Below are positions 16,005 to 49,478 of a stretch of 64,000 bases of DNA, piece after piece. The stretch covers positions 183,136-247,135 of the forward strand of contig CACHCK010000001.1 of the NCBI GenBank assembly GCA_902578305.1, in the 5' to 3' direction. This DNA comes from an uncultured Pelagibacteraceae bacterium (GTDB taxonomy: Bacteria > Pseudomonadota > Alphaproteobacteria > Pelagibacterales > AG-422-B15). The position numbers were made by a program, and so were the translations under genes. Numbering within the stretch: the stretch's first letter is position 1; each line of letters begins with the position of its first letter. The notes under the pieces are model-generated. The model ran no database searches, was not told where the DNA came from, and saw only the letters and a program-made list of their open reading frames with translations.

Positions 16005-16631
16005 TTGCTGCAAAAACTATACGATAAATATATTTGTCCGCATCTCATTAATTATGCGATGCAAATGAAACCATTCAGAAAACAAAGAGAAAAAGTAATA
16101 CCCTTTGCGTCTGGTAGAATATTAGAAATAGGTATTGGTTCAGGATTAAATTTTAATTATTACAATAAAGCAAATGTATCTGAGGTGTTTGCTGTTGAGC
16201 CAGATAGCGTATTGTTGAAAAAAGCAAAACAAAATGCAGAATTAAACAATATAGATTTGAATATCCAACAACTTAAGGCTGAGGAGTTGCCTTTCGATAA
16301 TAACTCATTTGATACAGTGATTAGCACTTACACAATGTGTTCCATTCCTGGTTTAGGCAGTGCTATGTCTGAAATAAACAGAGTTATGAAACCAAACGCT
16401 AAATTTCTATTCTCTGAACATGGCAAATCACCTGACTCAAATGTTTTGAAATGGCAAAAAAGAATGAACGGGATTCAAAAAAGGATAGCGGGTGGTTGTC
16501 ATCTTGATGTAGATATTCCAAATGAAATAACGAAAGCTAATTTTAAAATAGATAAAATAGACAGCATGTATGTTCCTGGACCAAAATTTTTAAGCTATCA
16601 TTACTGGGGCGCCGCTAGTCCGCTAAAATAA
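16005..16631 (+). CDS. Class I SAM-dependent methyltransferase (Methyltransf_11-like)
   Basis: ILEIGIGSGLN motif I. The TTG start directly abuts the upstream stop. Confidence 0.8.
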   Translation: MLQKLYDKYICPHLINYAMQMKPFRKQREKVIPFASGRILEIGIGSGLNFNYYNKANVSEVFAVEPDSVLLKKAKQNAELNNIDLNIQQLKAEELPFDNNSFDTVISTYTMCSIPGLGSAMSEINRVMKPNAKFLFSEHGKSPDSNVLKWQKRMNGIQKRIAGGCHLDVDIPNEITKANFKIDKIDSMYVPGPKFLSYHYWGAASPLK

Positions 16632-16634
16632 CTT

Positions 16635-17264
16635 ATGTTGATGCGACAAACTTTGGATTATGTTTTTTCAAATGCTGAAAGAAATAATCCGAAATCTATT
16701 CTGCAAACAATAGATAATTTTGTGTTAGAGAGCGGCCAGTTCTTAATGAATGTCGGTCCAGAAAAAGGAGAAATTTTAAAAAATCATCTTTTAAAGTCAG
16801 AACCAAATAATGTAATAGAGTTAGGAACTTTTATTGGATATTCAGCAGTATTAATCTCATCAACTATTGGAGAAAAAAGTCAATTAACTTCGATTGACTC
16901 AGACATTCACTCTATAGAAATAGCGAAAGAATTAATATACTTTGCTGGACTAGATAATAAAGTAAACTTGATGCACGGAAGTGCTGAGGAAATAATACCA
17001 AAATTAAACTTCAATGCTGATTTTGTATTTATTGATCATGCGAAGAAAAAGTATCTTTCGGATTTAAAGCTTTTGGAGTCAAAAGGCATAATTGTCAAAA
17101 ATTCTGTAGTATTTGCTGATAATGTTGGGATTTTTAAAGATGAAATGGCTGAATATTTCGACCATGTGAGAGAATCTGGGGAATATCTGTCTCAAAATTT
17201 TAGCTCGAAATTAGAGTATAGAAATAATATATATGATGCAGTGGAAATATCGATTAAGAATTAA
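16635..17264 (+). CDS. Catechol O-methyltransferase (COMT)-like SAM-dependent O-methyltransferase
   Basis: It appears collinear with my recollection of animal COMT: ILQTIDNF...MNVGPEKGEIL...VIELGTFIGYSAV...VFIDHAKKKYLSDL...ADNV...LEYRNNIYDAVEIS. Confidence 0.8.
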   Translation: MLMRQTLDYVFSNAERNNPKSILQTIDNFVLESGQFLMNVGPEKGEILKNHLLKSEPNNVIELGTFIGYSAVLISSTIGEKSQLTSIDSDIHSIEIAKELIYFAGLDNKVNLMHGSAEEIIPKLNFNADFVFIDHAKKKYLSDLKLLESKGIIVKNSVVFADNVGIFKDEMAEYFDHVRESGEYLSQNFSSKLEYRNNIYDAVEISIKN

Positions 17265-17269
17265 TATCA

Positions 17270-18721
17270 ATGGAAAATAGCAATCATTTTAATGTAATTG
17301 TAATTGGCGCTGGAATCTCGGGTATAGGAGCTGGATATTACTTAAAAAAAAATTGTCCTAATAAATCCTTTTGTATTATTGAAGGGAGAGAGAATATAGG
17401 CGGTACATGGGACTTATTTAAATATCCAGGAATAAGATCAGACTCTGATATGTTTACACTCGGGTATGCATTTAAGCCATGGAAAGAGCAAAAAACAATT
17501 GCAAACGGACCTTCCATCTTAAGTTATTTAGAAGAAACAGTTGAAGAAAATAATTTACGCGAAAAAATAAAATTTAGTCACAAAGTCTTAAGCGCAAACT
17601 GGAATTCAGCAGAGCGAAATTGGGAAGTAAGAGCTGCTCATCATGAGCAAGAAATATTATTAACAGCAAATTTTCTATTCATGGGGACAGGATACTATAA
17701 TTATGATGAAGGATACACACCTGAATTTGACGACCTAGACAAGTACGAAGGTAAATTAATACATCCTCAAAAGTGGCCTGAAGATTTTGACTACACAGAT
17801 AAGAAAATGGTTGTTATCGGTAGTGGCGCAACAGCAGCAACTATAGTTCCCGAACTATCAAAAAAAGCTAAACACGTAACGATGTTACAACGCTCACCAA
17901 CATATTATTTTCCAAGTCCAGATGAAGATAGATTTGCAAATTTTTTAAAAAAAGTTTTACCACAAAAAATGTCTTACACGCTTGTTAGGTTACGAAATGT
18001 ATTCTTTCAGCAGCTTCTCTACAGAATTTGTAGATCATATCCAAAATATGTAAAACGAAAGCTCATAGATGGAGTTAAAGAATTATTGCCTAATCACGAT
18101 ATTTCAAAACATTTTACTCCGCGATATTATCCATGGGAACAGAGAATGTGTCTTATTCCAAATGGCGATTTGTTTGAGTCCATAAGAGACAATAGAGCGT
18201 CAGTCGTTACAGATCATATCGATAAGTTTACTAGCAAGGGAATAAAGCTTAAATCAGGGCAAAATATTGAAGCTGATGTTGTCGTAACTGCTACAGGCTT
18301 AAACTTACAATCTTTTGGTGGTGTCCAAGTTCATATCGACGGCAAATTGGTCGAGCCTTCTGAAACAATGACTTATAAAAGTATGATGTTCAGCGGTATT
18401 CCAAATTTCGTAAATTCTTTTGGTTATATTAATGCATCTTGGACCTTGAAAGCAGATTTAACCTGTGAATATGCTTGTAGATTAATTAATTATCTTGATC
18501 AGAATAACTACAGTCATTGTGTACCAAGGGTTCCAGTGGATGTGAAAGCTGAAAAAGATTGGCTCGCGACTGAGTTTTCCTCAGGATATATACATCGAGC
18601 TATTCATTTATTCCCCCAACAAGGCAGCAGGTCACCATGGATTAATACACAAAATTATTTTAAAGATTTCTTTGGTATTAAATTTGGCCGACTAAACGAC
18701 GATTCTATTCATTTTTCTTAA
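17270..18721 (+). CDS. Flavin-containing / Baeyer-Villiger-type monooxygenase
   Basis: VIGAGISGIGAG (FAD), GGTWDLFKYPGIRSDS, a fingerprint-like YEGKLIHPQKWPE, and a second GSGATA (NADPH) motif. Confidence 0.85.
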   Translation: MENSNHFNVIVIGAGISGIGAGYYLKKNCPNKSFCIIEGRENIGGTWDLFKYPGIRSDSDMFTLGYAFKPWKEQKTIANGPSILSYLEETVEENNLREKIKFSHKVLSANWNSAERNWEVRAAHHEQEILLTANFLFMGTGYYNYDEGYTPEFDDLDKYEGKLIHPQKWPEDFDYTDKKMVVIGSGATAATIVPELSKKAKHVTMLQRSPTYYFPSPDEDRFANFLKKVLPQKMSYTLVRLRNVFFQQLLYRICRSYPKYVKRKLIDGVKELLPNHDISKHFTPRYYPWEQRMCLIPNGDLFESIRDNRASVVTDHIDKFTSKGIKLKSGQNIEADVVVTATGLNLQSFGGVQVHIDGKLVEPSETMTYKSMMFSGIPNFVNSFGYINASWTLKADLTCEYACRLINYLDQNNYSHCVPRVPVDVKAEKDWLATEFSSGYIHRAIHLFPQQGSRSPWINTQNYFKDFFGIKFGRLNDDSIHFS

Positions 18722-20361
18722 GCGTCGGCGGCTTTAGCCATTTCTCTCAGTTCGTATTTTAATATCTTACCTGTTGAAGTTTTTGGCAGTTCAGTAAAAA
18801 CGACTTTTTTAGGACACTTAAAACCAGCAAGAGTTTCTTTACAAAACGAAATAATATCGCCTTCACTCACGCTATCATTTTGATCTTTTAATTCGATAAA
18901 AGCACATGGTGTTTCACCCCATTTTTCATCTGGTTTTGCAACCACTGCAGCAAATAATACAGATGGATGTTTATAAAGTGTATTTTCTATTTCAACTGAT
19001 GAGACATTTTCACCACCAGAGATAATTATATCTTTACTTCTATCTTTTATTTGAATGTAACCATTAGGGTGCATTACAGCCAGATCACCTGAGTGAAACC
19101 AGCCTCCTGCCATAGCTTTATCTGTTTCTTCCTTATTTTTTAAATATCCCTTCATTACACAGTTGCCGCGTATCATGATCTCACCTATTTCTTCACCGTC
19201 ATTCTTGACGTACTCCATAGTCTCAGGGTTCATAATTGCTAGACCATCCATCATCGGAAACTTTACGCCCTGCCTTGATCTAAGCTTTGATTGTTCTTCA
19301 ACTGATAGCTCATTCCATTCATCCTGCCATGCGCATAATGAAATATGTCCGTATGTTTCAGTCAGTCCATAAACATGAGTAACGTCAAAACCCATTTTTT
19401 GAACCGCTTCTAATGTGGCTGCGGGTGGAGGAGCTCCTGCTGTGACTACATATACTTGTTGAGAGTATTCTCTTTTTTCCTCAGCTGTTGCTTGTGCTAG
19501 AAAATTTAGAACAATTGGTGCGCCACCAAAATGAGTTACTTTATGATCTGCAATAGCATCAAACATATTTTTAGCTGAAACATATCTAAGGCATACACTC
19601 GTGCCTGCTAGGGCTGTAAGTGTGTAGGGATTACCCCAACCATTACAATGAAACATTGGAACAACCCACATATAAGTAGGATGCATTGGCATACTAAAAG
19701 CAGTAACAGATCCAAGTGCCATCAAGTACGAGCCTCTGTGATGATAAACAACCCCTTTTGGTAATCCAGTGGTGCCTGACGTATAATTGAGCGCTAATGA
19801 TTGCCATTCATCATCTGGCAAACTCCATTCGAGATCACTGTCACCTGTTAAAAGAAAATCCTCATAATTAATTTCTCCAAGATTTTCTCCAGCTCCCTCA
19901 GGATGATTTGCTAGCTCATCATCAATATCTATTACAAGAATTTTATTTTTTATCTTATCGAGTACTTGTTTTATCGTCGGTGAAAGCTCATTGTCAGTAA
20001 TCAATGCTTTTGCTTCACCGTGCTCAAGAATATAGCTAATTGTATCTACATCTAATCTGATGTTTATCGTATTTAATACAGCGCCAATCATCGGAACACC
20101 AAAATGTGTCTCATATATTTCAGGAGTATTAAAACAAAGAACCGCAACAGTATCTCCCTTTCCTATACCTCTTTTAGAAAGTGCGCTCGCAAGTTGTTTG
20201 CTTCTTTTATATGTTTCAGACCATGTAAATTGTTTTTTGCCATGTATAATCGAAGTTCTATTTGGATAAACTTCCGCTGCTCGTATGAGAAAACTTAAAG
20301 GAGACAACGGTGTAAAATTTGCATCGTTTTTGTCTAAATTGGTATCATACATGTGAGCCAT
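18718..20361 (-). CDS. AMP-forming short/medium-chain acyl-CoA synthetase
   Basis: YTSGTTGLPKGV, YGLTETYG, GWFHSGDLA and KTSTGKILK motifs. It overlaps the convergent monooxygenase by 4 nt. Confidence 0.9.
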   Translation of the reverse strand: MAHMYDTNLDKNDANFTPLSPLSFLIRAAEVYPNRTSIIHGKKQFTWSETYKRSKQLASALSKRGIGKGDTVAVLCFNTPEIYETHFGVPMIGAVLNTINIRLDVDTISYILEHGEAKALITDNELSPTIKQVLDKIKNKILVIDIDDELANHPEGAGENLGEINYEDFLLTGDSDLEWSLPDDEWQSLALNYTSGTTGLPKGVVYHHRGSYLMALGSVTAFSMPMHPTYMWVVPMFHCNGWGNPYTLTALAGTSVCLRYVSAKNMFDAIADHKVTHFGGAPIVLNFLAQATAEEKREYSQQVYVVTAGAPPPAATLEAVQKMGFDVTHVYGLTETYGHISLCAWQDEWNELSVEEQSKLRSRQGVKFPMMDGLAIMNPETMEYVKNDGEEIGEIMIRGNCVMKGYLKNKEETDKAMAGGWFHSGDLAVMHPNGYIQIKDRSKDIIISGGENVSSVEIENTLYKHPSVLFAAVVAKPDEKWGETPCAFIELKDQNDSVSEGDIISFCKETLAGFKCPKKVVFTELPKTSTGKILKYELREMAKAADA

Positions 20362-22028
20362 TAAAACAATCCCTCTATGTCGCCATTTTTATTTAAGTGT
20401 ATAGCATTTGCAGCTGGAACTCTAGGCAGACCTGGCATAGTCATAATCTTATCGCATACAACTACAAGAAATTCTGCACCCGCTGCTAGTCTAACTTCTC
20501 TGATAGGAACTACATGGTCTTTTGGAGCGCCTCTTAGATTTGGATCAGTTGAGAAGCTGTATTGAGTTTTAGCTACACATATTGGGTAATGGCCATATTT
20601 TTCCTCCAAGTCGTCAAACTGCATTCTTATTTTTTGGTCAGCAATAATATCGCTCGCTCCATATATTTCTTGTGCAATTTTTTTCATCTTATCCCACAAT
20701 TTCATTTCGTCCGGATACAGGTGCTTTATCTTTGGAGCATTTTGCTCAGTAATTTCTACTATGTGCTTTGCTAGGTCCTCTGTGCCTACACCACCATTGC
20801 TCCAATGTGTGCAATTAAATGACTTTACATTTAATGAATCACAGCAATCACTGATTGCTGACAACTCTTTTTCACTGTCAGATATGAAATGATTAATTGC
20901 AACTGTAACAGGCGCCCCATATATTTGCATATTTGCAATGTGCTGCTTTAAATTTGATAAACCATTTTTTACAGCTTCAACATTTTCATTTTTTAATTCT
21001 TTTTTATCCATACCGCCATGCATTTTTAACGCTCGAACTGTTGCAACTATTACTATTGCTGAAGGATTTAATTTTCCTTTACGGCACTTTATGTCTAAAA
21101 ATTTTTCTGCTCCAAGATCTGCACCAAAGCCTGCTTCTGTTACAACATAATCACTTAATTTAAGAGCAGTTTGAGTAGCAACTAAAGAATTGCATCCATG
21201 GGCAATATTTGCAAAAGGACCCCCATGAATGATAGCAGGATTTTTCTCCAGTGTTTGAACAAGATTAGGTAAGAAAGCATCTTTTAGCAAAGTAGTCATC
21301 GCGCCGTCTGCATTTAAGTCTCGCGCCGTAATTTCTTTCTTCTCCCTTGTATAACCAACAATGATATTCCCAAGTCTATTTTGTAAATCGTCTAAACTTG
21401 TAGATAAACAAAAAATTGCCATCACTTCAGATGCAACAGTAATATCGAATTTATCCTCACGTGGGTATCCGTTGGCTATACCGCCTAAATTAACATTAAT
21501 ATTTCTTAAAGCACGATCATTTAAATCTACAACACGTCCCCAAACTACTCTTCTTGTATCAATTCCTAAATCGTTTCCCCAATAAATATGGTTATCAATC
21601 ATCGATGCAAGTAGGTTATGTGCTGATGTGATCGCATGGAAATCACCTGTGAAATGTAAATTAATTTTATCCATTGGTACTACTTGGGCGTAACCGCCTC
21701 CTGCAGCACCCCCTTTGACACCAAAGCAAGGCCCTAAACTAGGTTCTCTCAAGCATACCAATGACTGTTTTCCAATTTTATTTAAGCCATCACTGAGACC
21801 GACTGATGTAGTAGTCTTTCCTTCGCCTGCTGGGGTAGGTGAAATGGCCGTCACTAAAATGAGTTTTCCGTTCTTGTTATTACTTTCTATATGTTGAGTA
21901 TCAATTTTAGCAATGTGGTGCCCAAATTTTTGGAGATTTTGATCTTTTAAGTCTAATTTTGAAGCAATTTCTTCAATAGGAGCCATGCTATTTTCTCTAG
22001 CAATTTCAATATCTGAGAGTACAGCCAT
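20361..22028 (-). CDS. fhs: Formate-tetrahydrofolate ligase
   Basis: LSDIEIA..., [14 protein letters not shown] and [14 protein letters not shown]. Start moved to [10 protein letters not shown] (22028); the 10 extra codons in the ORF track are not family-like. The stop overlaps the next start as TAATG. Confidence 0.95.
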
Positions 22029-22145
22029 AAATAAAACTAATATTAAAAACCTAGACAACTTAAGAACTTTACAGATAGGAGTCTACAAAAATGTATTGCT
22101 ATAGAACAAATTTTTACTTAAATTTTGTTTTAGGAGACTCAAATA

Positions 22146-22195
22146 GCGCTGCAAAATTAAGCCAAGCAGTGCAATTGAAAATTCGCGTGGCTTAA
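22146..22195 (+). promoter_or_regulatory. Candidate H-type pseudoknot RNA in the leader of the metF-like operon
   Basis: Stem 1 is GCGCTGC (22146-22152) with GCAGTGC (22166-22172). The stem-1 loop segment TTAAGCCA (22157-22164) is perfectly complementary to TGGCTTAA (22188-22195), which lies 24 nt before the ATG. Confidence 0.4.
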
Positions 22196-22218
22196 GCGGT
22201 ACACTCATTTACAGCATT

Positions 22219-22959
22219 ATGGGAAATGTAAATTTTTCATTGGAAGTTACTACAAGAACAAATCTGTCTGATTTGCCTAAACTTAATGACATTTATATTA
22301 CATTTTTGCCTGGCACAAGTTATCTTGACGTTATTGAGCAAACCAAGGCGTTAGCTAGTGCAGGTTATAATCCCATTCCTCACTTTCCAGCTCGTTCAAT
22401 TACTGATTCAGATATGTTAAAATCATATATAGAGCAAGTTAAAGAGGCTGGAGTTAAACAAGTTTTAATAATTGGTGGCGATCGAGATATTTTAGGAAAA
22501 TATCATTGTTCACTACAACTTATAGAAACTGGATTGTTTGATGGAATGAAAATAGGTATTGCTGGTCATCCTGAGGGATCTCCAAATATGAGCGATGCAG
22601 CTATTGAAGAAGCAATGAAATCAAAGGCCCCATTTGCTGACTATATTGTAACACAGTGGACACAAGATACAGACGCATTATCGTCTTTTATTTCTGGAGC
22701 ACCACTTCCTGTTCATGTAGGTGTTGCGGGCCCGGCTTCTATGAAGACACTAGTAAAATTCGCTGGATTTGTTGGATTAAAGAATACGCTTAATTTCGCA
22801 AAAAAAAATGCATCTAAAATTTTTGATTTATTGACTGTTCAGACACCTGATGATGTAATTCAAGAATTAAAAGAGAACGTTGAACATTTTCACATTTATG
22901 CGTTTGGTGGAATAAAAAAAGCAAACGAATGGTTAGAAAAGGAGAACTACTATGTCTAA
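22219..22959 (+). CDS. Methylenetetrahydrofolate reductase (MetF)-like protein, short form
   Basis: Collinear with MetF landmarks: FSLEV..R (SFEFFPPR), PHFPAR (PHLTC), LIIGGD (ALRGD), IAGHPEGSP (AAYPEVHPE), VTQWTQD (ITQFFFD) and HFHIYAFGG (FHFYTLN). Confidence 0.75.
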   Translation: MGNVNFSLEVTTRTNLSDLPKLNDIYITFLPGTSYLDVIEQTKALASAGYNPIPHFPARSITDSDMLKSYIEQVKEAGVKQVLIIGGDRDILGKYHCSLQLIETGLFDGMKIGIAGHPEGSPNMSDAAIEEAMKSKAPFADYIVTQWTQDTDALSSFISGAPLPVHVGVAGPASMKTLVKFAGFVGLKNTLNFAKKNASKIFDLLTVQTPDDVIQELKENVEHFHIYAFGGIKKANEWLEKENYYV

Positions 22960-24295
22960 AAAAATAGAACATAACACTACTGTTGATCAAAGCGACAGAC
23001 ATGTTCCTTACAATTTACGCCAAAGTGGACCAACAAAAGTTGAAATGTTGATTTCAACTCGAGTGAGAAAGTCACCATATTGGCATAAGTCGATGGAGGC
23101 AGGATGCTGGAGAGCAACAGTTTATAACCGCATTTATCATCCCAGAGGTTATGTAAAGCCTGAAGATGGTGGAGCAATGGTTGAATATGAAGCAATTAAA
23201 AATCATGTGACTATGTGGAATGTTGCAGTTGAGAGACAAATACGTGTAATTGGTCCAGATGCTGAAAAATTTACAGACTATGTAATTACAAGGGATGCCA
23301 CAAAGATATCACCATTACGAGCTAGGTATGTAATATTATGTAACTATAAAGGTGGAGTCTTAAATGATCCTATTCTCTTAAGAATCTCGAAAGATGAGTT
23401 TTGGTTTAGTTTGTCAGACTCAGATATTGGACTTTATTTGCAAGGCGTAAACGCTGATAAAAGATTTGATGTGGAAATTGACGAAATTGATGCGTGCCCT
23501 GTTCAAATTCAAGGACCAAAAGCCATTGCCTTGATGAAAGACCTAGTGGGTGATCAAGTTGATCTTGATAATATTCCTTTCTATGGTTTAGCAGAAGTTA
23601 AAGTTGGTGGAAGAAGTTGTGTGATTTCTCAAACTGGTTTCTCTGGCGAGTCCGGTTATGAAATTTATTTACGAAATGCGACGCTCTATGCCGACGATAT
23701 GTGGGATGCTGTTTTAGAAGCAGGCAAGAAACATAATCTAATGGTTATAGCACCTGCTCACCACAGAAGAATACAAGCAGGTATTTTATCCTGGGGTCAG
23801 GACTTAGATCATGAGCACAATCCTTTTCAATGTAATCTTGGTTATCAGGTTTCTTTATCTGGAAAAGGTGAGTGGGCGAAAAAAGGTGATTATATCGGTA
23901 AGCAAGCGCTTGAAAAGATGAAGGCTGACTTGAAAGATGGTCATAAGCCATACAAGTTACAATTGGTGGGATTTGAGATTGGTGGCAAACCAATTGATGA
24001 GTATGCACCTGATTTTTGGCTTGTGTCTCCTGGTGACGGTGGAGACCCATGTGGCTTTATTACTTCACCTTGGTATCATCCTGAAAAAGGAAAAAATATA
24101 GCTATGGGTTATATACCTTTTGATGGAACTCTTAATCCAAATGGTTTTCCAAAATGGGAATTAGGTAAAAAATTTAAAGTTCATTTACCTGATATTTATG
24201 CTGATGAACCAGGAGTGCCAGTAGACGCCGTAACAGTTGATGTTCCGTTTACTGAGTCTTTCAACGCTAATACAAGAGAAGTTGTAAAGGGCTAG
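22952..24295 (+). CDS. GcvT-family THF-dependent aminomethyl/methyl transferase (demethylase, substrate unknown)
   Basis: RKSPYWHKS...TVYNRIYHP...VTMWNVAVERQIRVIGPDAEKF...GGVLNDPILLR...ISQTGFSGESGYEIY. 8-nt overlap with the metF-like gene. Confidence 0.85.
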   Translation: MSKKIEHNTTVDQSDRHVPYNLRQSGPTKVEMLISTRVRKSPYWHKSMEAGCWRATVYNRIYHPRGYVKPEDGGAMVEYEAIKNHVTMWNVAVERQIRVIGPDAEKFTDYVITRDATKISPLRARYVILCNYKGGVLNDPILLRISKDEFWFSLSDSDIGLYLQGVNADKRFDVEIDEIDACPVQIQGPKAIALMKDLVGDQVDLDNIPFYGLAEVKVGGRSCVISQTGFSGESGYEIYLRNATLYADDMWDAVLEAGKKHNLMVIAPAHHRRIQAGILSWGQDLDHEHNPFQCNLGYQVSLSGKGEWAKKGDYIGKQALEKMKADLKDGHKPYKLQLVGFEIGGKPIDEYAPDFWLVSPGDGGDPCGFITSPWYHPEKGKNIAMGYIPFDGTLNPNGFPKWELGKKFKVHLPDIYADEPGVPVDAVTVDVPFTESFNANTREVVKG

Positions 24296-32744: not shown

Positions 32745-33785
32745 TTAAGATGTCATTGATTTTAAGACTATTGACCGATCAATTTCACCAATTAGTTCTC
32801 CTGAAACTGCATCGATTACAGGATATTTTTTGTCAGTGTCAGCTATCTGATTAATTAAAGTATCGATTTTAACGTCACTTTTAATACACTCATTGCCCTG
32901 GGCAAACAGAGTCTTTGTATCCTCACAGCATTCTTTTCTTGCACATTTACCCGCACTTAAAACTTTGTATTTGGGAACGTCTTCAGTGAAGTCTTTTACA
33001 TATTGATCTACGGGATTTGCAACAATTTCCTCTGGTGTACCAACTTGTGATATTTCTCCATCTTTCATAATCGCAATATGATCACCCATTTTAATAGCTT
33101 CAGAAAAATCATGTGTAATGAATACCATTGTTTTTTGAACCATTTTTTGAATGCTAATTAACTCGTCTTGCATTTCCCTTCTTATCAATGGATCCAGTGC
33201 TGAGAAAGGTTCGTCAAAAATTAGAATCTCTGGATCTACTGCTAGAGCTCTAGCTAGTCCAACTCTTTGTTGCATTCCACCTGACAATTCACGAGGGTAA
33301 TGTTGATCCCAACCTTCTAATCCTACAAGTTTAAGTGTTTCCATTGACTTATCTAATCGATCTTTTTTCTTTACTCCCCTTATTTCAAGTCCATAGCCAA
33401 TATTTTCTATCACTCTTCGATGAGGGAAAAGACCAAAGTGCTGAAATACCATACTCATTCTATTACGCCTCAGATCTGTTAAATCCCTATTGCTCATCAA
33501 TGTTACATCTTGATTGTCAATTTTTACCTCACCTGCTGTTGGCTCAATCAGTCTTGATAAACATCTTACTAATGTAGATTTACCACTACCTGATAAACCC
33601 ATTACAACGAACGTTTCACCTTTTTGAACTGAGAAACTTACATCTTTAACTGCAACCACATGTCCAGTTTTTTCTTGCACTTCACTTCTTGAAAGATTTT
33701 TGTCTAAATTTGTAAGAACATTTTTTTCATTTGGCCCAAATACCTTCCATATATTTGTGCATACTATTTTGTCATTTTTTTCCAT
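32745..33785 (-). CDS. proV: Glycine betaine/proline-type ABC transporter ATP-binding protein
   Basis: Walker A GLSGSGKST, signature LSGGMQQRV, Walker B ILIFDEP, and a C-terminal CBS-like tail. Confidence 0.9.
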   Translation of the reverse strand: MEKNDKIVCTNIWKVFGPNEKNVLTNLDKNLSRSEVQEKTGHVVAVKDVSFSVQKGETFVVMGLSGSGKSTLVRCLSRLIEPTAGEVKIDNQDVTLMSNRDLTDLRRNRMSMVFQHFGLFPHRRVIENIGYGLEIRGVKKKDRLDKSMETLKLVGLEGWDQHYPRELSGGMQQRVGLARALAVDPEILIFDEPFSALDPLIRREMQDELISIQKMVQKTMVFITHDFSEAIKMGDHIAIMKDGEISQVGTPEEIVANPVDQYVKDFTEDVPKYKVLSAGKCARKECCEDTKTLFAQGNECIKSDVKIDTLINQIADTDKKYPVIDAVSGELIGEIDRSIVLKSMTS

Positions 33786-33871
33786 TATTTTTGAGTGCTT
33801 TATCTGCTGAATGTTATACTATGTTGAAGATTTTTGAATAATTTATTTAACCTTGAGGAATACTATTTTAC

Positions 33872-35992
33872 ATGGCATTAACCCAGGATACATCGCTTTT
33901 ATCTTCTAAAAGTAGTACTCAGAGTCTAATCATACCTGGGCTAATTTTTGCTGCAATTCTAGCTTCAATCTGGCTTGCATTCCAAGGTGAAGATGTTTCA
34001 GAATTTCCTGTCTTTATAACAGATGCTTTTACTTTTACAGCTTGGGTCAATGCTGGTGAAGATTTTCTAAAAGATAATATTAAAGTTTATACAAGGATGG
34101 TTGCTGGTTATGTAAAAGACCTTTATTGGATGCTCGAAGATTTTTTACTAGATTCATCTTGGGTATTTATAGCGGCGCTATTGCTTATTCCATCACTTGC
34201 ATTTGGTGGAATTAAATTAGGTTTTCTTGTTCTTTTTGGCACCATGTATTGGGGAATGGTTGGGCTTTGGGATTCTGCTATGGAAACTCTTGCTCTTATG
34301 GGTTTATCAGTATTCTTATCTGTAGCCGTTGGAGTGATACTTGGTATTTTCTGTGCATTAAGTGATCGTTTTGAGAGAAATATGAAACCAGCTCTCGATA
34401 TAATGCAAGTGATGCCTGCGTTTGTTTATCTTATCCCCGCAATGTTTTTCTTTGGAATCGGAGGTGCACCTGCAATTCTTGCAACAATGATTTATTCAAT
34501 GCCTCCTATTATTCGTCTCACAAACTTAGGTATACGTCAGGTCCCCAATGAAACAGTAGAAACAGCAACAGCTTTTGGTTCTAGTAAAAGTCAAATTTTA
34601 TTTAAAGTACAAATTCCATTAGCTCTGCCAAGCATCATGATGGGCGTTAACCAAACAATAATGATGGCATTGGCATTGGTTGTTTTAGCAACGTTTATCG
34701 GGGCTCAAGGTCTAGGTTCAGACATTTGGGTATCGATAAAAAAACTAGAAGTCGGAGCTGCTTTGGAAGGAGGTATTTGCGTTCTTTTAATGGCAATCAT
34801 GTTCGATAGATTTGGTAAAGCCGCTAGTCGGGAGACAGTGACTTTGCCATCCGATAGTCAAAAATTTTATCTTTTACCGCAAACATGGGATATTTATCCC
34901 ATTGCTAGACAGGTTGAAAAACCTCTACAGTTAATTCATTTTGCATTTGCATTTGTATTCTCAAGCGTCATTCGAATATTTTCTTTCATTTTAAATTCAG
35001 TAATTTCTTTATTTAATAAGGATTATGGCTCAGCTATTGCACAATTTATAAATGCTCATTATTTCTTTTTCTCTGGATTATTAATATTAATTGGCATTAT
35101 TTATTATGATGCAAACGTTGCTGCAATAGGAACATTTCCTGATGCATGGAATCTGTCAATAAGAGAAGAAATTTCTGCTGGTGTAAAATCATTGGTTGTA
35201 AATGATACGTTTATTTCAATAACCAAAACAATCAGATCAACTGTTGTTATTTACCTTCTAAGACCATTTGATTTTTATCTAACATATTTACCTTACTGGT
35301 TTACAATTGGGGCATTGGTTCTAATCAGCTGGAAATCTGTTGGAATTAGATTTGCGATTATTACTGCCATCCTTCTAGCATTCATCGGCGCTTGCAATAT
35401 TTGGACTGAAGCAATGATTACTCTTTCATCAGTTCTTATATCAGTTCTTTTATGTTTTGTAATTGGTGTGCCAATAGGTATCTTAGCATCTTACAGTAAG
35501 AGATTTCAAAATATCAACGAGGTAATATTAGATGCAATGCAAACATTGCCATATTTTTGTTACCTTGTTCCAGTTTTAATGTTTTTTGGTGGTGGGGCAT
35601 TTTCTGCATTACTTGCAACAATTATATACTCCATACCTCCAATAATACGTTTAACTGTATTGGGCCTGTCTCAAGTTTCTTCCACATATTCAGAAGTATC
35701 AAAGTCATTTGGAGGCACTACAATTCAGACTCTCAATAAGATAAAATTTCCTCTAGCAGTTCCTAGTTTGGTTATGGGTTTCAATCAAACAGTCATGATG
35801 GCTTTTGCGATGCAAATTGTTACACCTCTCATTGGTGGTAAAGGGCTAGGTCTTGAGGTATTTAATGGCTTAGCTCGATCAGATACTGGTAGAGCTCTTG
35901 CTGCTGGCATAGGAATTTGTTTATTAGCCATGATAATTGACCGTATCAGTCTTGCATGGACAAAAAAGCAAAGAGATGCCCTAGGTTTATAG
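33872..35992 (+). CDS. proW: Fused double-permease of a betaine-type ABC transporter (two ProW-like halves)
   Basis: Two EAA-loop copies are present: TATAFGSSKSQILFKVQIPLALPSIMMGVNQTIMMAL and VSKSFGGTTIQTLNKIKFPLAVPSLVMGFNQTVMMAF. Confidence 0.9.
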   Translation: MALTQDTSLLSSKSSTQSLIIPGLIFAAILASIWLAFQGEDVSEFPVFITDAFTFTAWVNAGEDFLKDNIKVYTRMVAGYVKDLYWMLEDFLLDSSWVFIAALLLIPSLAFGGIKLGFLVLFGTMYWGMVGLWDSAMETLALMGLSVFLSVAVGVILGIFCALSDRFERNMKPALDIMQVMPAFVYLIPAMFFFGIGGAPAILATMIYSMPPIIRLTNLGIRQVPNETVETATAFGSSKSQILFKVQIPLALPSIMMGVNQTIMMALALVVLATFIGAQGLGSDIWVSIKKLEVGAALEGGICVLLMAIMFDRFGKAASRETVTLPSDSQKFYLLPQTWDIYPIARQVEKPLQLIHFAFAFVFSSVIRIFSFILNSVISLFNKDYGSAIAQFINAHYFFFSGLLILIGIIYYDANVAAIGTFPDAWNLSIREEISAGVKSLVVNDTFISITKTIRSTVVIYLLRPFDFYLTYLPYWFTIGALVLISWKSVGIRFAIITAILLAFIGACNIWTEAMITLSSVLISVLLCFVIGVPIGILASYSKRFQNINEVILDAMQTLPYFCYLVPVLMFFGGGAFSALLATIIYSIPPIIRLTVLGLSQVSSTYSEVSKSFGGTTIQTLNKIKFPLAVPSLVMGFNQTVMMAFAMQIVTPLIGGKGLGLEVFNGLARSDTGRALAAGIGICLLAMIIDRISLAWTKKQRDALGL

Positions 35993-36113
35993 ATCTAATT
36001 TATATACATATTTCCTGATACTTTTCTTCAAAAAATGTTGATAAAGCGGTTTACTTATTCATCTTTTTTGGTCTAAAATTATTTATTAATTAATTAATAA
36101 AAAGGGGAAATTA

Positions 36114-37118
36114 ATGAAAAATTCATTATTTGCAAAAACTTTTGCTGCCCTGATTTTGTCTTCTTTTTTAGTTCTTTCGGCAGGTACTGCCAACGCTAAG
36201 CGTTTAACAGCTGCTGTTGCTGACTGGACTGGTGGAGAATTAACATGTCAGGTTGCAGTTGCTATCCTTGAAGAAGAGCTAGGCTACAGAGTTGATAGAA
36301 TAGAATTCGCTTCAGGAACAGGTCTATGGGAAGCTATTGCCGCTGGCGATATTGACTTCGCATGTGAAAGTTGGCCAAGTTATGCTGAGGCTGACGATGT
36401 AATGATCAACATGAATCTTGTTTATGACGGAGAAGTTGTAAAAGAGTATTCTGGTGATGGATCTGTTGATGCGTACACAAGTGGTATCATTGGAATGTCA
36501 GATTACTATGTTCCAAAATACTTTGTTGACGCTAACCCAGATTTTAAAGACTGGTCAGATTTAAATAAATTCAAAGATCAATTTGCGACACCTGAAACAG
36601 GTTCAAAAGGTAGATTGATTGGATGTCCAGTTGCTGGTTGGAACTGTCATGACCAAAAAAGATTAGATCTTTTAGGAATTGATTTTGAAGCATCAGAACT
36701 AGGTACTGAGGTTGCAGCTCTAGCGGAAGCTCAAGGAGCTTATGATAGAGGTGAAGCATTCCTTCTGTATCTTTGGGAACCACACTTTTTCTTCGGTAAG
36801 AATGAAATGGTTGGTGTAAAACTACCAGCATACAAATACTGTGATAGTTTTACTGAAGCTAATAACTGGCAAGATTGTGGAACTGCAGCATGGCCTGCTA
36901 CAGGTTGGGATAAAGACTACACGATGAATTATATGAATCCTGAAGTTATGTCTAGACCTGAGAACGCTGAAGCAGTTGCATTCTTCAAAAAAATGGCTTT
37001 CTCTAACACGGATCAAGCAAAAATGCTTGTAAGAGTTGGTGACGACGGATTATCTGTCGAAGAAGCTGTTGCTGAATGGAAAAACAGTACAGACGAATGG
37101 AAAGCTTGGCTTCCGTAA
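36114..37118 (+). CDS. proX: Periplasmic glycine betaine/quaternary amine-binding protein (ProX/OpuAC family)
   Basis: Signal peptide; Trp-rich ligand-box candidates (ADWTGGE, CESWPSY, LYLWEPHF). Confidence 0.85.
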   Translation: MKNSLFAKTFAALILSSFLVLSAGTANAKRLTAAVADWTGGELTCQVAVAILEEELGYRVDRIEFASGTGLWEAIAAGDIDFACESWPSYAEADDVMINMNLVYDGEVVKEYSGDGSVDAYTSGIIGMSDYYVPKYFVDANPDFKDWSDLNKFKDQFATPETGSKGRLIGCPVAGWNCHDQKRLDLLGIDFEASELGTEVAALAEAQGAYDRGEAFLLYLWEPHFFFGKNEMVGVKLPAYKYCDSFTEANNWQDCGTAAWPATGWDKDYTMNYMNPEVMSRPENAEAVAFFKKMAFSNTDQAKMLVRVGDDGLSVEEAVAEWKNSTDEWKAWLP

Positions 37119-38101: not shown

Positions 38102-39028
38102 CTATAATTGATTGAGTACTTTAATGTGTTCAACTGTAGTACCGCAACATCCACCTATAATTTGCGCTCCAGCATCCTTCCACTTTTTTGCTTCAATTAA
38201 ATAATCATCAGGAGAAATTACATTGCTCATGTCGTAGTGTGGAAAATTAAATACCGCTACTTCTGGATACGCCATAACAGGAAGGTCATATACTTCTTTA
38301 AGTTCTTTAATACTTTGTTCTATTACATTAATTTCACAATGCATTATTCCTACAGCATCCAATTTATGATGTTTGACATTACTAATCATTTTTTTAAAAC
38401 TATAGTCATAGTCTGTAGTAAGGGCTATTAACCCGTCTTTATTTCTAGATGAGAATCCAGCCCACACAGGCAATCCAGCCTTACTTGCTGAGTCAAAAAT
38501 TATTTCAATTCGATCTGGTCGATACATTAACTCTAGTAGAATAAAATCACACCCATTATCGGCTAGAAAAAAAGCGAGCTCATCAAAAGACTTTTGAAAA
38601 TATTCGGGTGTGAGTTTTTTTTTAAATTTCTCTCTTTCCTCTTGTGTTTCAAAAGCATCCTCATACGGTATTTGATGAGACAAGGACCCAGCTATAAGTA
38701 CATCATCTCTACCACATTCTTCCCTTGCTTCCAGAGCTGCATTTATTGCACTTAGATTTATTTCTTTGAATTGATTATCTACCCCCGCGGTTTCTAAGAT
38801 CATTCGATTTGTTGCATAAGTATTTGTAGTTATAATACTTGAGCCAGCCTCAATATAATCTTTATGTATTTGCTTTAATGTATCACTCTCTAAGGAAGCT
38901 GTGCCACACCAAGAATTATCCATTTTAATACCACGGTTTTCAAGCTCCGAACCAGTGGCCCCATCAAGAAGAATATTTTCTCCGGCATGAATACGTTTCA
39001 TTAAATTTTCATATCTTTTGCTCATCAT
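38102..39028 (-). CDS. Homocysteine S-methyltransferase family (betaine- or SMM-homocysteine methyltransferase candidate)
   Basis: LLDGATGSELE N-terminus, NTY, and zinc-ligand motifs including IIGGCCGTTVEHI. Confidence 0.85.
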   Translation of the reverse strand: MMSKRYENLMKRIHAGENILLDGATGSELENRGIKMDNSWCGTASLESDTLKQIHKDYIEAGSSIITTNTYATNRMILETAGVDNQFKEINLSAINAALEAREECGRDDVLIAGSLSHQIPYEDAFETQEEREKFKKKLTPEYFQKSFDELAFFLADNGCDFILLELMYRPDRIEIIFDSASKAGLPVWAGFSSRNKDGLIALTTDYDYSFKKMISNVKHHKLDAVGIMHCEINVIEQSIKELKEVYDLPVMAYPEVAVFNFPHYDMSNVISPDDYLIEAKKWKDAGAQIIGGCCGTTVEHIKVLNQL

Positions 39029-39133: not shown

Positions 39134-40270
39134 ATGTCAAAAGGTATTATATACACCCCAAGGATTAGAAAATCACCTTTCTTTGAAGAGACACTAAAAT
39201 ACGGCGCTACCAATTTTACAACTTATAACCGTATGACGATGCCTGTTGGCTATACGACTCCTGAGGAGGAATACCAATCATTAATAAACGATGTAACATT
39301 ATGGGATGTGGCAGCAGAGAGACAAATTGAAATTATTGGAGAAGACGCCGCTAAATTTGTTCAGTATATGACGCCAAGAAATCTATCAACTTTTAAAGAT
39401 GGGTTTTGTCGTTACGCATTTATGACAGATGAAAATGGTGGAATCATAAATGATCCATTAATTTTAAAGTTTAATGAAAATAAGTATTGGCTGAGTATTG
39501 CAGATTCTGATGCGATACTATGGTGTAAAGGCGTTGCTTTATCTGGTAAGTTTAATGTTAAAATTTCGGAGCCTGAAGCTTGTCCGCTTTCATTGCAAGG
39601 TCCGCGCGCAAAAGAACTCATGAGAAAAGCTACAAATGATGATCCAGTTATTATGGGATTAAAATATTATCAATTTATCGAAACTAACTTATTTGGATTA
39701 GATATCATCATTGCACGCAGCGGTTGGAGTAATCAGTTTGGATACGAAATTTATATAACAAGAGAAGTAGATGGTCCGGCATTATGGAATGCATTAATGG
39801 AAGCAGGAAAAGAGTTTAAAATTGTACCAAGTTGTCCTAATCAAATAGATAGAATTGAAGCCGGTATGATTTCCCACCAAGGAGATACCTCATTAGCTGA
39901 GAACCCTTTAGAACTAAACTTGCCAAAATTTTATGATCTTGATCAAGAAGCGGACTTTGTAGGAAAAGATGCTCTCTTAAAAATAAGAGAAGAGGGCATT
40001 AAAAAACAATTCACTGGTTTTAAAATTTCAGGAAAGAAAATTGGTTATAATATGGCAAGAATACCATTGTTTGACAATAACTCTGAAAAAAAAGGATTTG
40101 TAACCAGCTGTATTTATAGCCCAAACTTTGGATGCAATATTGCCTTAGGGTTCATTGATATTAATTTAATTAATTCAGAAGAAGTTTATCAGATTGATCA
40201 TGATGGAGAAAAACGAGAAGTTGAAGTTGTCCCTTTACCATTTAGTTCTAGACTCGAAAAAATGGAATAA
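39134..40270 (+). CDS. GcvT-family THF-dependent demethylase, DmdA (DMSP demethylase)-like
   Basis: PRIRKSPFFE...FTTYNRM..., VTLWDVAAERQIEIIGEDA, GGIINDPLILK and YWLSIADSD resemble the DmdA pattern as I recall it. Confidence 0.8.
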   Translation: MSKGIIYTPRIRKSPFFEETLKYGATNFTTYNRMTMPVGYTTPEEEYQSLINDVTLWDVAAERQIEIIGEDAAKFVQYMTPRNLSTFKDGFCRYAFMTDENGGIINDPLILKFNENKYWLSIADSDAILWCKGVALSGKFNVKISEPEACPLSLQGPRAKELMRKATNDDPVIMGLKYYQFIETNLFGLDIIIARSGWSNQFGYEIYITREVDGPALWNALMEAGKEFKIVPSCPNQIDRIEAGMISHQGDTSLAENPLELNLPKFYDLDQEADFVGKDALLKIREEGIKKQFTGFKISGKKIGYNMARIPLFDNNSEKKGFVTSCIYSPNFGCNIALGFIDINLINSEEVYQIDHDGEKREVEVVPLPFSSRLEKME

Positions 40271-40920
40271 TGATTTCAAGAAGTAGAGTTAATCAACTTT
40301 TATTCCTTTCAATAATTATATTAGCAGTCGTCGCTGGTTGGGCAGTTTCTGAATTATTTAGAGACAATACTTCAGAAGTATCAAACAACATTGATTTAAA
40401 ATTTACCGCAGTTGACCATTTTGGAGTTGATGTAAGCGAAAGAACTTACAGAGGATATAGTAAAGTATTCTTTTTTGGCTTTACTCATTGTCCAGATATT
40501 TGTCCAATAAGTGCGAATCTTATGAGCAATGCCATTGATCAATTAAATAGAGAAAATCATTCAATAGAAAATATAAAATTTTTCTTTGTAACAGTTGATC
40601 CTGCTAGGGATAACCCTGATCGGTTAAAAGAATTTCTCAGCAACTTTAGCAATAATTTAATTGGTTTAACGGGGACACATGAAAATCTTATGCCAATATG
40701 GAAAGATTTTTTTGTACATGTAGAGCCGGCTACAAATTCAGAACATCAAAATTATTTAGGTACGTCTGAACAATCTGATGAAATAAGTAATAAAGAAAAA
40801 AACTACATGGTTCAACATACTGCTTTCTATTATATTTTTGATGATAATGATGTATTAGTAAGCATACTTCCGTTTGGTTCTAGTATTGAACAAATGGTTG
40901 AAGATTTAAAAAATCTATAA
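40270..40920 (+). CDS. SCO1/SenC copper chaperone (thioredoxin fold)
   Basis: FGFTHCPDICP CxxxC motif, with a later His in MVQHTAFYYIFD. The start overlaps the upstream stop (TAATG). Confidence 0.85.
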   Translation: MISRSRVNQLLFLSIIILAVVAGWAVSELFRDNTSEVSNNIDLKFTAVDHFGVDVSERTYRGYSKVFFFGFTHCPDICPISANLMSNAIDQLNRENHSIENIKFFFVTVDPARDNPDRLKEFLSNFSNNLIGLTGTHENLMPIWKDFFVHVEPATNSEHQNYLGTSEQSDEISNKEKNYMVQHTAFYYIFDDNDVLVSILPFGSSIEQMVEDLKNL

Positions 40921-40922
40921 CA

Positions 40923-41168
40923 ATGTATAAAATATCAATATTTATTTTTTTTGTTTTATTTTCTTGTTCCGAAATAATTGAAACAAATAAATATAGAGCA
41001 TTGGCATCTGAACAAGCATCAAAAAAAAATTGTGATGCTAACGTTGAGCTTCTTTTAAAACATGAAAAGACTGAATTATGGGCATCTTATCATAACAAAG
41101 ATAAAAACTTATTATGCGTTTTAACTTGTGTTAACGATGTCTGTATGTTTTCGACAGAGAGAGATTAA
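40923..41168 (+). CDS. Small Cys-rich putative lipoprotein
   Basis: Lipobox-like FVLFSC at residues 10-15, and a C-terminal CVLTCVNDVC cluster. Confidence 0.5.
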   Translation: MYKISIFIFFVLFSCSEIIETNKYRALASEQASKKNCDANVELLLKHEKTELWASYHNKDKNLLCVLTCVNDVCMFSTERD

Positions 41169-41171
41169 GGG

Positions 41172-41627
41172 TTGTATAAAGCACTAATAATAGTTTTGTT
41201 TTTAGTTTCTACAATAATTGGAGCTGCTCACCAATTTCAAAAAGATCATATTAATATAAATCACCCACACATAAAGTTTGTAATTTCATCAGGCCCTGCA
41301 GCTGGATATATGAAAATAGTAAACATGGGTTTCGAGACAGATCGTTTAATTAAAGTTGTTACTGACTTTGCAGATGCTGAGTTACATTATTCAAGTATAG
41401 AGAGTGGAATGGTTGCAATGAGTAAAGTTGATTTTATTGAAATCCCTCCACAAAAAGCTAAATCGCTCAAACCCGGCACGCACCATATAATGTTTTCAAA
41501 TTTTAGTGTTGAATTAACTCATGGAATTAGTTTAGAAGGGTCTTTAGTATTTGAAAATGCCGGCGAGATCAAAGTGCTTTTTGAGGTTGAAACTCAAAAA
41601 AGTATAGATGACCATACGGAACATTAA
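41172..41627 (+). CDS. Periplasmic copper chaperone PCu(A)C (DUF461)
   Basis: TTG start; AAGYMKIVNMG, ELHYSS..GMVAMSKV and PGTHHIMFSN match the His/Met copper-site pattern. Confidence 0.8.
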   Translation: MYKALIIVLFLVSTIIGAAHQFQKDHININHPHIKFVISSGPAAGYMKIVNMGFETDRLIKVVTDFADAELHYSSIESGMVAMSKVDFIEIPPQKAKSLKPGTHHIMFSNFSVELTHGISLEGSLVFENAGEIKVLFEVETQKSIDDHTEH

Positions 41628-42508: not shown

Positions 42509-42512
42509 CTAT

Positions 42513-43193: not shown

Positions 43194-43198
43194 TTCAT

Positions 43199-49193: not shown

Positions 49194-49478
49194 ATGTTTA
49201 TAATTAATTGTCCATATTGTGGGGAAAGAGATCAGACAGAATTCACATGTCACGGCGAAGCTCACATTGCAAGGCCAGATAACCCATCTGAAATAAGTGA
49301 TGAAGAATGGGGCAGGTATCTTTTTTTTAGAGAAAATCCAAAAGGAACCCATTTTGAAAGATGGACACACGATCATGGATGCAGACGATGGTTTAATGTA
49401 ATGAGAGACACTGTCACAGATCAAATAATAAAAACATATAAAATGGGTGAAGCAAAGCCGGAGATATCAAATGAGTAA
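49194..49478 (+). CDS. soxD: Sarcosine oxidase delta subunit
   Basis: CPYCGERDQTEF...HGCRRWFN zinc-site pattern. Confidence 0.95.
   Translation: MFIINCPYCGERDQTEFTCHGEAHIARPDNPSEISDEEWGRYLFFRENPKGTHFERWTHDHGCRRWFNVMRDTVTDQIIKTYKMGEAKPEISNE

Follow-up and report, generated by a model that had tools for sequence, protein, structure and literature searches.

The locus considered here raises the question of why a member of the SAR11 lineage keeps fhs, the gene for formate-tetrahydrofolate ligase, back to back with genes for a short, metF-like methylenetetrahydrofolate reductase (MTHFR) and a GcvT-fold protein, and which substrate these enzymes might serve. The three genes lie in a 64,000-nt stretch of DNA (hereafter the window) from an uncultured Pelagibacteraceae bacterium, at positions 183,136 to 247,135 of contig CACHCK010000001.1. 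With a probability of roughly 70%, we propose that the trio is a methyl-group "strip and burn" unit of SAR11, in which a methyl group would be transferred to tetrahydrofolate (THF) and then oxidized while bound to this carrier. The initial annotation of the sequence had described fhs as divergent from an operon of the metF-like and GcvT-like genes with an 8-nt overlap, and the whole layout was recovered at the coordinates below.

18718..20361, minus strand: acyl-CoA synthetase, 547 aa (NCBIfam PRK08162)
20361..22028, minus strand: fhs, formate-tetrahydrofolate ligase, 555 aa (Pfam FTHFS and NCBIfam PRK13505)
22131..22206, plus strand: structured-RNA candidate, 5' of metF in the fhs/metF intergenic region (hairpin and loop-to-downstream pairing)
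22219..22959, plus strand: short MTHFR (metF-like), 246 aa, ortholog of SAR11_1264 "metF" (match to 7XG9/7XLF, Foldseek, conserved residues)
22952..24295, plus strand: GcvT-fold protein, 447 aa, ortholog of SAR11_1265, proposed methyl-onium:THF methyltransferase (Pfam GCV_T, tree, Foldseek)

A 190-nt spacer separates fhs from the metF-like gene, which overlaps the gene for the 447-aa protein by 8 nt (ATGTCTAA). In the context of this overlap (...TACTATGTCTAA), the downstream gene starts with the ATG at 22952 and the metF-like gene ends with the TAA at 22959. A Shine-Dalgarno sequence, AAGGAGA, is located just 5' of the start of the 447-aa gene and inside the end of metF, and its combination with the overlap is a signature of translational coupling. 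The operon contains two genes only, since msrA converges on its 3' end. On the opposite strand, the mechanically defined open reading frame (ORF) of fhs extends over 20361..22058 from a TTG start, whereas gene callers chose the ATG at 22028; the resulting 555-aa call is found in six metagenome contigs with an identical locus. The stop codon of fhs and the start of the acyl-CoA synthetase gene that follows it have 1 nt in common, and the latter gene is apparently co-transcribed 3' of fhs.

The conservation of this arrangement was assessed by a tblastn survey with one genome per species, in which the best 80 loci were all from Pelagibacteraceae. The metF-like gene is adjacent to the gene for the 447-aa protein, a member of the aminomethyltransferase (AMT) family, in 79 of the 79 loci that have an upstream flank. 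The divergent fhs is confined to the window's own subclade, whose AMTs are 91-99% identical to the 447-aa protein; it was seen there in each of the 12 genome loci and in six metagenome contigs. The 452-aa proteins of Candidatus Pelagibacter annotated as "aminomethyltransferase family" are 84-87% identical to it, and these orthologs are encoded directly 3' of a 242-245-aa MetF in 62 loci, including records of Ca. P. ubique and P. communis; fhs is present within 8 kb in one of these 62 Ia-type loci. Between the subclades, the AMT retains 85% identity, as compared with ~53% for MetF and 69% for Fhs. Because the metF-AMT adjacency and, within the subclade, the position of fhs are consistently conserved, the arrangement of the trio is not due to chance.

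By sequence and gene order, the window pair is the ortholog of SAR11_1264/SAR11_1265 in strain HTCC1062. SAR11_1264 is named metF and was proposed to oxidize methyl-THF by analogy with Methylobacterium CM4, and SAR11_1265 was described as a gcvT-like aminomethyltransferase of unknown substrate that is closest to dmdA and about as abundant in metagenomes as recA and dmdA (Sun et al. 2011, PMC3160333). Within SAR11, the latter gene belongs to the core set and is strongly conserved. The two genes are co-regulated, both being down-regulated 5-10-fold in stationary phase (PMC5069961). The window pair shares with them the lineage, the gene order and the published methyl-THF-oxidation reading, as well as the 8-nt overlap, which was read directly in the ortholog of P. 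communis HTCC9565 (L043). The differences are threefold: i) the HTCC1062 fhs, SAR11_1285, is not adjacent to the pair (PMC3160333) but ~20 genes away, whereas it is immediately divergent in the window; ii) the window MetF is only ~53% identical to the Ia type and keeps the catalytic residue D88; and iii) the RNA element 5' of metF was found in the window's subclade only. The juxtaposition of fhs is a subclade-specific rearrangement, which joins regions lying apart in HTCC1062, and the only new part of a module that has itself been published. The demethylate-and-burn logic of the initial annotation thus stands, whereas its notion of a previously unrecognized module does not, as the module was already presented in 2011 as SAR11_1264/1265 (PMC3160333).

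The 246-aa protein is a real but very divergent MTHFR. It scores 29.3 bits with Pfam MTHFR (gathering score 24) and 25-30 bits with the NCBIfam metF equivalogs, for which the cut-offs are near 300. Its single significant phmmer match in the PDB is 7XG9/7XLF (E = 2e-34, 33% identity), the MTHFR of Sphingobium lignivorans SYK-6 (S6MTHFR); the next MTHFR has E = 0.5. The AlphaFold model (pLDDT 86) contains all eight TIM-barrel beta-strands despite its 246 residues. In Foldseek, 7XG9 is again the top match (E = 1e-17, 33% identity), as compared with ~1e-12 and 18% identity for the canonical MTHFRs of E. coli, Thermus and eukaryotes. S6MTHFR oxidizes methyl-THF with a kcat of 29 per second, whereas NADH is scarcely a substrate for it (Yu et al. 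2025, PMC11868366). It defines the "type 4" MTHFRs, which co-occur with the THF-dependent demethylases LigM, DesA, CmuAB and Dmt; the type 4 survey began from these four demethylases and mentions neither SAR11 nor DmdA (PMC11868366). Plasmid-borne MetF homologs in sphingomonads and rhizobia adjoin LigM-type AMTs, purU and folD.

The residues expected of such an enzyme are largely in place. The catalytic E9, D88 and Q146 (Glu21, Asp107 and Gln175 in S6MTHFR; E28, D120 and Q183 in E. coli) are present in 17 of 17 MetF sequences of the subclade, and residues common to FAD-dependent MTHFRs are likewise kept, so that the protein is not a MetF-like form devoid of its FAD- and folate-binding residues. 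The segment T28-F-L30-P31-G aligns with the sphingomonad T-F-L-P-G, where E. coli has T-Y-G-A-N, and Phe215 of S6MTHFR is kept as Phe181. The loop between beta8 and alpha11 reads Y227-A-F229-G-G-I, versus Tyr-Pro268-Phe269-Gly-Gly-Leu in type 4, and retains the Phe-Gly-Gly. The window MetF therefore carries both the Leu-Pro loop that blocks NADH in S6MTHFR and the F-G-G loop. It is ~40 residues shorter than S6MTHFR and departs from it at three further positions. Cys219 of helix alpha8 is replaced by Val185 (Ile in the fused forms described below); the Pro268 position is occupied by Ala (the Ia-type and fused forms have Thr here, like types 1 and 2); and Arg78, which buttresses Leu48, corresponds to Ser60 in all 115 SAR11 sequences, with the adjacent Arg (R77 of S6MTHFR) being kept. 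By these comparisons, the window MetF would be a relative of the type 4 MTHFRs that follows most, not all, of the published motifs, and it probably oxidizes methyl-THF. The SAR11 MetF is in this way linked to a recently defined methyl-THF-oxidizing type of MTHFR.

The metabolic context of SAR11 bears on the direction of this reaction. SAR11 lacks MetE, MetH and MtgBCDE (Mausz et al. 2025, PMC12478193) and therefore any known consumer of methyl-THF, so that MetF could only be useful as an oxidase. The absence of these enzymes (PMC12478193), together with the type 4 motifs, rules out MetF as a reductive, methionine-supplying enzyme in SAR11. A separate observation concerns the catalytic Asp itself. 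The residue (window D88, codon 22480-22482; D120 in E. coli, D107 in S6MTHFR) is kept in every subclade MetF examined. Of 98 Ia-type MetFs of Pelagibacter (e.g. L043:7256-7984), 97 carry Gly or Ser instead, usually together with Glu, Asp or Gln two positions after this site. Mainstream SAR11 MetF may thus either use a shifted acid or perform a different chemistry.

Fhs aligns to profile positions 2-556 of 556 of Pfam FTHFS with 858 bits and, scoring 875 bits against a cut-off of 652 for the NCBIfam equivalog PRK13505, qualifies as Fhs. Taken together, the window system is of a known type, comprising a THF-dependent demethylase, a methyl-THF-oxidizing MTHFR and formyl-THF processing, in a subclade-specific arrangement. 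A functional parallel is the LigM-MetF-LigH system of S. lignivorans SYK-6, where a THF-dependent demethylase yields methyl-THF, which is oxidized by an FAD-dependent MTHFR and passed on to formyl-THF processing. The analogy to ligM-metF-ligH drawn by the initial annotation is borne out at the functional level by the SYK-6 MetF being the best solved-structure match (7XG9/7XLF), with the E/D/Q residues, the T-x-L-P loop, Phe215 and the F-G-G loop in common. It does not extend to the demethylase, which is of the DmdA/GcvT rather than the LigM type.

The 447-aa protein matches Pfam GCV_T with 140 bits. Its top NCBIfam model is DmdA (PRK12486) with 236 bits, under the cut-off of 410, and it remains far below the cut-offs of the GcvT models TIGR00528 (127 vs 236 bits), PRK00389 (148 vs 300) and PRK13579 (109 vs 459), and of the LigM (36.9 vs 580) and DesA (46.3 vs 800) models. 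The best sequence match in the PDB is the P. ubique DmdA 3TFH (159 bits), and the 447-aa protein also matches the GcvT-fold domains of dimethylglycine dehydrogenase (DMGDH), SoxA and Tdm. For its AlphaFold model (pLDDT 85), the top Foldseek match is again 3TFH, with a target-normalized TM-score of 0.93 and an rmsd (root-mean-square deviation) of 2.3 A, as compared with a TM-score of ~0.88 for T-proteins and 0.58-0.61 (rmsd 5-9 A) for LigM.

In a neighbour-joining tree with 200 bootstraps, the 447-aa protein, its Pelagibacter orthologs and relatives at 49-53% identity from Francisellaceae, Gamma- and Alphaproteobacteria and Chloroflexota form one clade with 87% support. The sister clade, also supported at 87%, comprises DmdA and a 378-aa protein encoded in the window at 39134. 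The kinship of the 447-aa protein with DmdA is thus upheld, whereas membership in DmdA is not. The clade, which is small in sequence space at 50% clustering, shares an N-terminal arm, VPxNLRQSG...STRVRKSPYWH, that is missing from DmdA; arm residues N21, R23, Q24, S25 and G26 (window numbering) are invariant in 44 sequences, as are D139, E237, Y239 and R272-R273. By its fold match and these residues, the protein is of the three-domain GcvT type with a THF site. Relative to DmdA, to which it is ~31% identical, the 447-aa protein has this ~30-residue arm, an insertion near 300-335 and a ~50-residue C-terminal tail. We thus assign it, by sequence, to a long "NLRQSG-arm" AMT clade that is sister to DmdA; it is neither a GcvT, a DmdA nor a LigM. 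A bona fide GcvT is ruled out by the model cut-offs and by the lack of gcvH and gcvP among the ~55 of 67 window ORFs that were scanned; a true DmdA by its cut-off (236 vs 410) and the tree position; and a LigM/DesA-type O-demethylase by both model and fold scores.

Three relatives in the long-AMT/DmdA clades (P0242, P0293 and P0298) have N-terminal extensions resembling organellar transit peptides; one of them, P0242, clusters with the SAR11 proteins (52% identity). The extensions are a hint that enzymes of these clades are also encoded by eukaryotic plankton.

The proposed mechanism combines these assignments. The 447-aa enzyme would move a methyl group from an activated donor to N5 of THF, yielding 5-methyl-THF without cobalamin, as DmdA does with dimethylsulfoniopropionate (DMSP); this step is suggested by the DmdA kinship and the pairing with MTHFR. 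DmdA, its closest characterized relative, has the same three-domain GcvT fold and forms 5-methyl-THF (PMC5395565), and by analogy a redox-neutral methyl transfer to THF would be expected here (PMC5395565). The 246-aa MetF would then oxidize 5-methyl-THF to 5,10-methylene-THF, using FAD and an acceptor other than NAD(P), as judged from its homology to S6MTHFR, the motifs and the lack of methyl-THF consumers. FolD, encoded outside the window, would take the carbon unit to 10-formyl-THF, from which the divergently transcribed Fhs would release formate and ATP, the direction following SAR11 C1 physiology (PMC3160333). A formate dehydrogenase encoded elsewhere would complete the oxidation.

Relatives outside SAR11 add evidence on both the coupling of the three functions and the likely substrate. 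They were collected by a protein search, contig look-ups and one metagenome scan, which gave 86 non-SAR11 loci, many on short contigs; in 53 of them, one or both flanks extend over 2.5 kb or more. Two proteins are fusions of MTHFR, GCV_T and GCV_T_C domains, in the same order as the SAR11 genes: P0394 (736 aa, from Facilibium subflavum) and P0395 (755 aa). The T-x-L-P and F-G-G motifs are present in the MTHFR half of each. Directly 3' of the F. subflavum fusion gene (L089:8001-10211) lies fhs, and on its 5' side are a DMGDH-like gene, the electron-transfer flavoprotein (ETF) alpha and beta genes and ETF-QO. The genes for AMT, MTHFR and FTHFS stand in a row on two unrelated metagenome contigs (L133 and L162), with DMGDH next in L133. 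The fusions and the recurrent AMT-MTHFR-FTHFS order indicate that the trio was assembled independently several times. Five of the MTHFR-like genes that flank an AMT in 15 loci have the full set of type 4 motifs (FLPG, the helix alpha8 Cys, and PFGG or CFGG). The recurrent neighbours of the non-SAR11 AMT genes are as follows.

DMGDH-like dehydrogenase, typically immediately 3' on the same strand: 17 loci
MTHFR-like, flanking the AMT: 15 loci
IclR regulator: 10 loci
GbdR-like DJ-1/AraC regulator: 8 loci
BCCT transporter, usually divergent: 6-7 loci
ProV-like ABC ATPase: 6 loci
aldehyde dehydrogenase: 6 loci

One contig has the arrangement BCCT / AMT / GbdR-like / DMGDH, a Chloroflexota contig has ProV(CBS) / AMT / DAO, and another holds a set for the conversion of carnitine or butyrobetaine to betaine (GBBH-like, BKACE, 3-hydroxyacyl-CoA dehydrogenase-type and Rieske genes). 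Such neighbours are what one would expect around the enzyme that opens glycine betaine catabolism, with the AMT in place of GbcAB, Bhmt or MtgBCD. Because the relatives are found with DMGDH, BCCT/ProV, GbdR-like and carnitine-to-betaine genes, we tentatively favour a quaternary-ammonium osmolyte as the methyl donor, with glycine betaine as the leading though still uncertain candidate (betaine + THF -> dimethylglycine + methyl-THF); other onium compounds, methylmercaptopropionate (MMPA) or an unforeseen compound are possible donors. At a distance of 9-30 kb downstream of the trio, the window also holds betaine transporter genes of the opuA type, a DMGDH-like gene and soxBAG genes. In line with these neighbourhoods, which point to N-methyl osmolytes, the methoxy-aromatic substrate that the initial annotation had considered is unlikely. 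Overall, its interpretation is partly supported, being right in its logic and on MetF.

The same net reaction is carried out by MtgBCD of Ruegeria pomeroyi, where betaine is converted to dimethylglycine and methyl-THF, a dedicated MetF paralog, MetF2, oxidizes the latter, and the genes are often co-located with those for later betaine demethylation (PMC12478193). MtgBCD is a multi-subunit, cobalamin-dependent system, and SAR11 lacks both MtgBCD and cobalamin-dependent methyl transfer, whereas the enzyme proposed here would be a single, cobalamin-independent GcvT-fold protein. In the prevailing view, SAR11 uses Bhmt alone for betaine demethylation, with every turnover coupled to a homocysteine. 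If true, methyl transfer from betaine directly to THF would lift this coupling and stand, independent of cobalamin, beside the known routes via GbcAB, Bhmt and MtgBCD. A bolder version, which we hold to be rather doubtful, is that the long-AMT clade represents a fourth, cobalamin-independent class of betaine or N-osmolyte demethylases, with a dedicated and sometimes fused methyl-THF-oxidizing MTHFR removing the product; that in SAR11 it handles the larger part of the energy-yielding flux of betaine methyl groups in place of Bhmt; and that the RNA upstream of metF is a new folate or methyl-donor riboswitch class. In any case, the MTHFR fusion, the AMT-MTHFR-Fhs-DMGDH operons and the neighbouring transporters and regulators narrow the candidate substrates to a short, assayable list.

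Several points weigh against the proposed unit and its substrate. Three residues conserved in type 4 are replaced in the window MetF (Arg78 to Ser, Cys219 to Val and Pro268 to Ala), and given these replacements the predicted loss of NADH reactivity is not assured. The betaine assignment rests on the neighbours of ~50%-identical proteins, many of them on short contigs, and the betaine transporter in the window adjoins the 378-aa AMT, not the 447-aa AMT. Glycine betaine demethylation in SAR11 has been assigned to Bhmt, which was deemed sufficient (PMC12478193). A literature search found no precedent for a GcvT-fold enzyme that passes a methyl group straight from a quaternary amine to THF, and no paper in which the SAR11_1265 clade has an assigned substrate or a GcvT-fold betaine:THF methyltransferase is described. 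Finally, the Rieske oxygenase and enoyl-CoA hydratase context of the Ia-type pair would fit other substrates too.

This Ia-type context is as follows. In P. communis HTCC9565, metF-AMT is divergent from the gene for a 410-aa Rieske-type oxygenase alpha subunit (L043:5958-7190, minus strand), and a stretch of 7 kb also includes genes for an enoyl-CoA hydratase, a CoA-binding protein and a DMGDH-like protein. These surroundings differ from those in the window and might bear on the substrate.

Among the alternatives, the one that survives best, although we consider it improbable, is that the 447-aa enzyme takes off the second DMSP methyl group, turning MMPA into mercaptopropionate, or has some other sulfonium or thioether as its substrate, with MetF and Fhs oxidizing the methyl group. 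Removal of the second DMSP methyl group was the role suggested speculatively for SAR11_1265 by Sun et al. (2011, PMC3160333), and it draws on DmdA being the sister group and the best sequence and fold match, and on SAR11_1265 being about as abundant as dmdA in metagenomes (PMC3160333). An acyl-CoA synthetase gene lies 3' of fhs, and the enoyl-CoA hydratase and CoA-binding protein genes near the Ia pair would fit as well. However, this acyl-CoA synthetase (18718-20361) scores 866 bits with PRK08162 (cut-off 677) and falls far under the DmdB model PRK07008 (323 vs 822 bits). Sulfonium and ammonium centres are, moreover, far better methyl donors than a thioether. The clade is also widespread beyond marine DMSP degraders, in Chloroflexota, Francisellaceae and unclassified metagenome contigs, and its recurrent neighbours there, in loci not screened for dmdB, dmdC and dmdD, are of the betaine type (DMGDH, BCCT/ProV and GbdR-like).

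Less probable still is that the 447-aa protein, rather than being a methyltransferase, works on its own as a THF "formaldehyde trap" in the manner of the C-terminal domains of DMGDH, SoxA and Tdm, forming methylene-THF from the iminium or formaldehyde released by a partner oxidase or oxygenase, with MetF in another role. The GcvT fold is used in this manner in DMGDH, SoxA and Tdm, all of which are matched by the 447-aa protein, and Rieske oxygenases and DAO-type oxidases recur near its relatives. Such a trap leaves the strict pairing and covalent fusion with MTHFR unexplained, since the need for an MTHFR arises only with methyl-THF as product or goal, and SAR11 has no methionine synthase that uses methyl-THF (PMC12478193); the nearest characterized relative, DmdA, is furthermore a true methyltransferase. 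The possibility that the module O-demethylates aryl methyl ethers as the Sphingobium LigM/DesA-MetF-LigH system does, a literal version of the analogy in the initial annotation for which the clustering of the same three functions, the SYK-6-type MetF with its plasmid-borne homologs beside LigM-type AMTs, purU and folD, and the divergent Rieske ring-hydroxylating oxygenase of Pelagibacter Ia could be cited, is very remote given LigM/DesA scores of 37-46 bits versus cut-offs of 580-800, which also dispose of the LigM-like demethylase toward which the initial annotation leaned, TM-scores of 0.58-0.60 to LigM versus 0.93 to DmdA, and the lack of ring-cleavage genes among the window ORFs scanned.

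The strip-and-burn unit of the window's subclade may be subject to regulation at the RNA level. The structured-RNA candidate in the fhs/metF spacer (22131-22206, plus strand) consists of a 7-bp hairpin, GCGCTGC / GCAGTGC, with compensatory changes at two pairs, and an invariant loop, AAAAUUAAGCCAA, that has 8 nt complementary to an invariant downstream segment, UGGCUUAA; this pairing could form an H-type pseudoknot. Its exact core occurs throughout the window's subclade (18 of 18 loci) but is absent from the 157 other loci compared. The single-sequence fold has a z-score of only -1.8. No match to Rfam 15 was obtained at the gathering threshold or at E <= 5, which rules out a known riboswitch in the spacer. 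The element may be an unclassified riboswitch-like leader of the metF-AMT operon.

On the other side of the spacer, the position of the acyl-CoA synthetase gene beside fhs is conserved across the window's subclade. A flavin monooxygenase gene (17270-18721) and two S-adenosylmethionine-methyltransferase-like genes (16005-17264) converge on it, and the block 16635-20361 on the fhs side is conserved solely in this subclade.

The 378-aa gene (39134-40270, plus strand) was seen by the initial annotation as a shorter paralog of the gene for the 447-aa protein. The paralogy itself holds, at 34% identity, but it is not a simple one, as the 447-aa protein belongs to a separate widespread clade and the 378-aa protein to the DmdA clade. 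The latter shares 43.5% identity with DmdA of P. ubique but reaches 352 bits with the DmdA model, under the cut-off of 410; it may be the DMSP demethylase of the subclade or a demethylase for another onium compound. Its gene is divergent from a homocysteine S-methyltransferase-family gene (38102-39028, minus strand) and is near the opuA-type betaine/DMSP transporter locus (32745-37118), which encodes an ATPase, a fused double permease of 706 aa and OpuAC. More broadly, the window region 31534-53053 gathers methyl-catabolism genes that are dispersed in HTCC1062, including an iron-type alcohol dehydrogenase (Fe-ADH), opuA, two AMTs, a DMGDH-like gene and sox genes. The features downstream of the 378-aa gene, with a copper-chaperone cluster in between, are as follows.

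40270-43193: copper-chaperone cluster (SCO1, PCuAC, PpoB2, DUF1326)
43178-45634: DMGDH-like gene
46709-49182: two DAO/soxB-like genes
49447-52476: soxA
52469-53053: soxG

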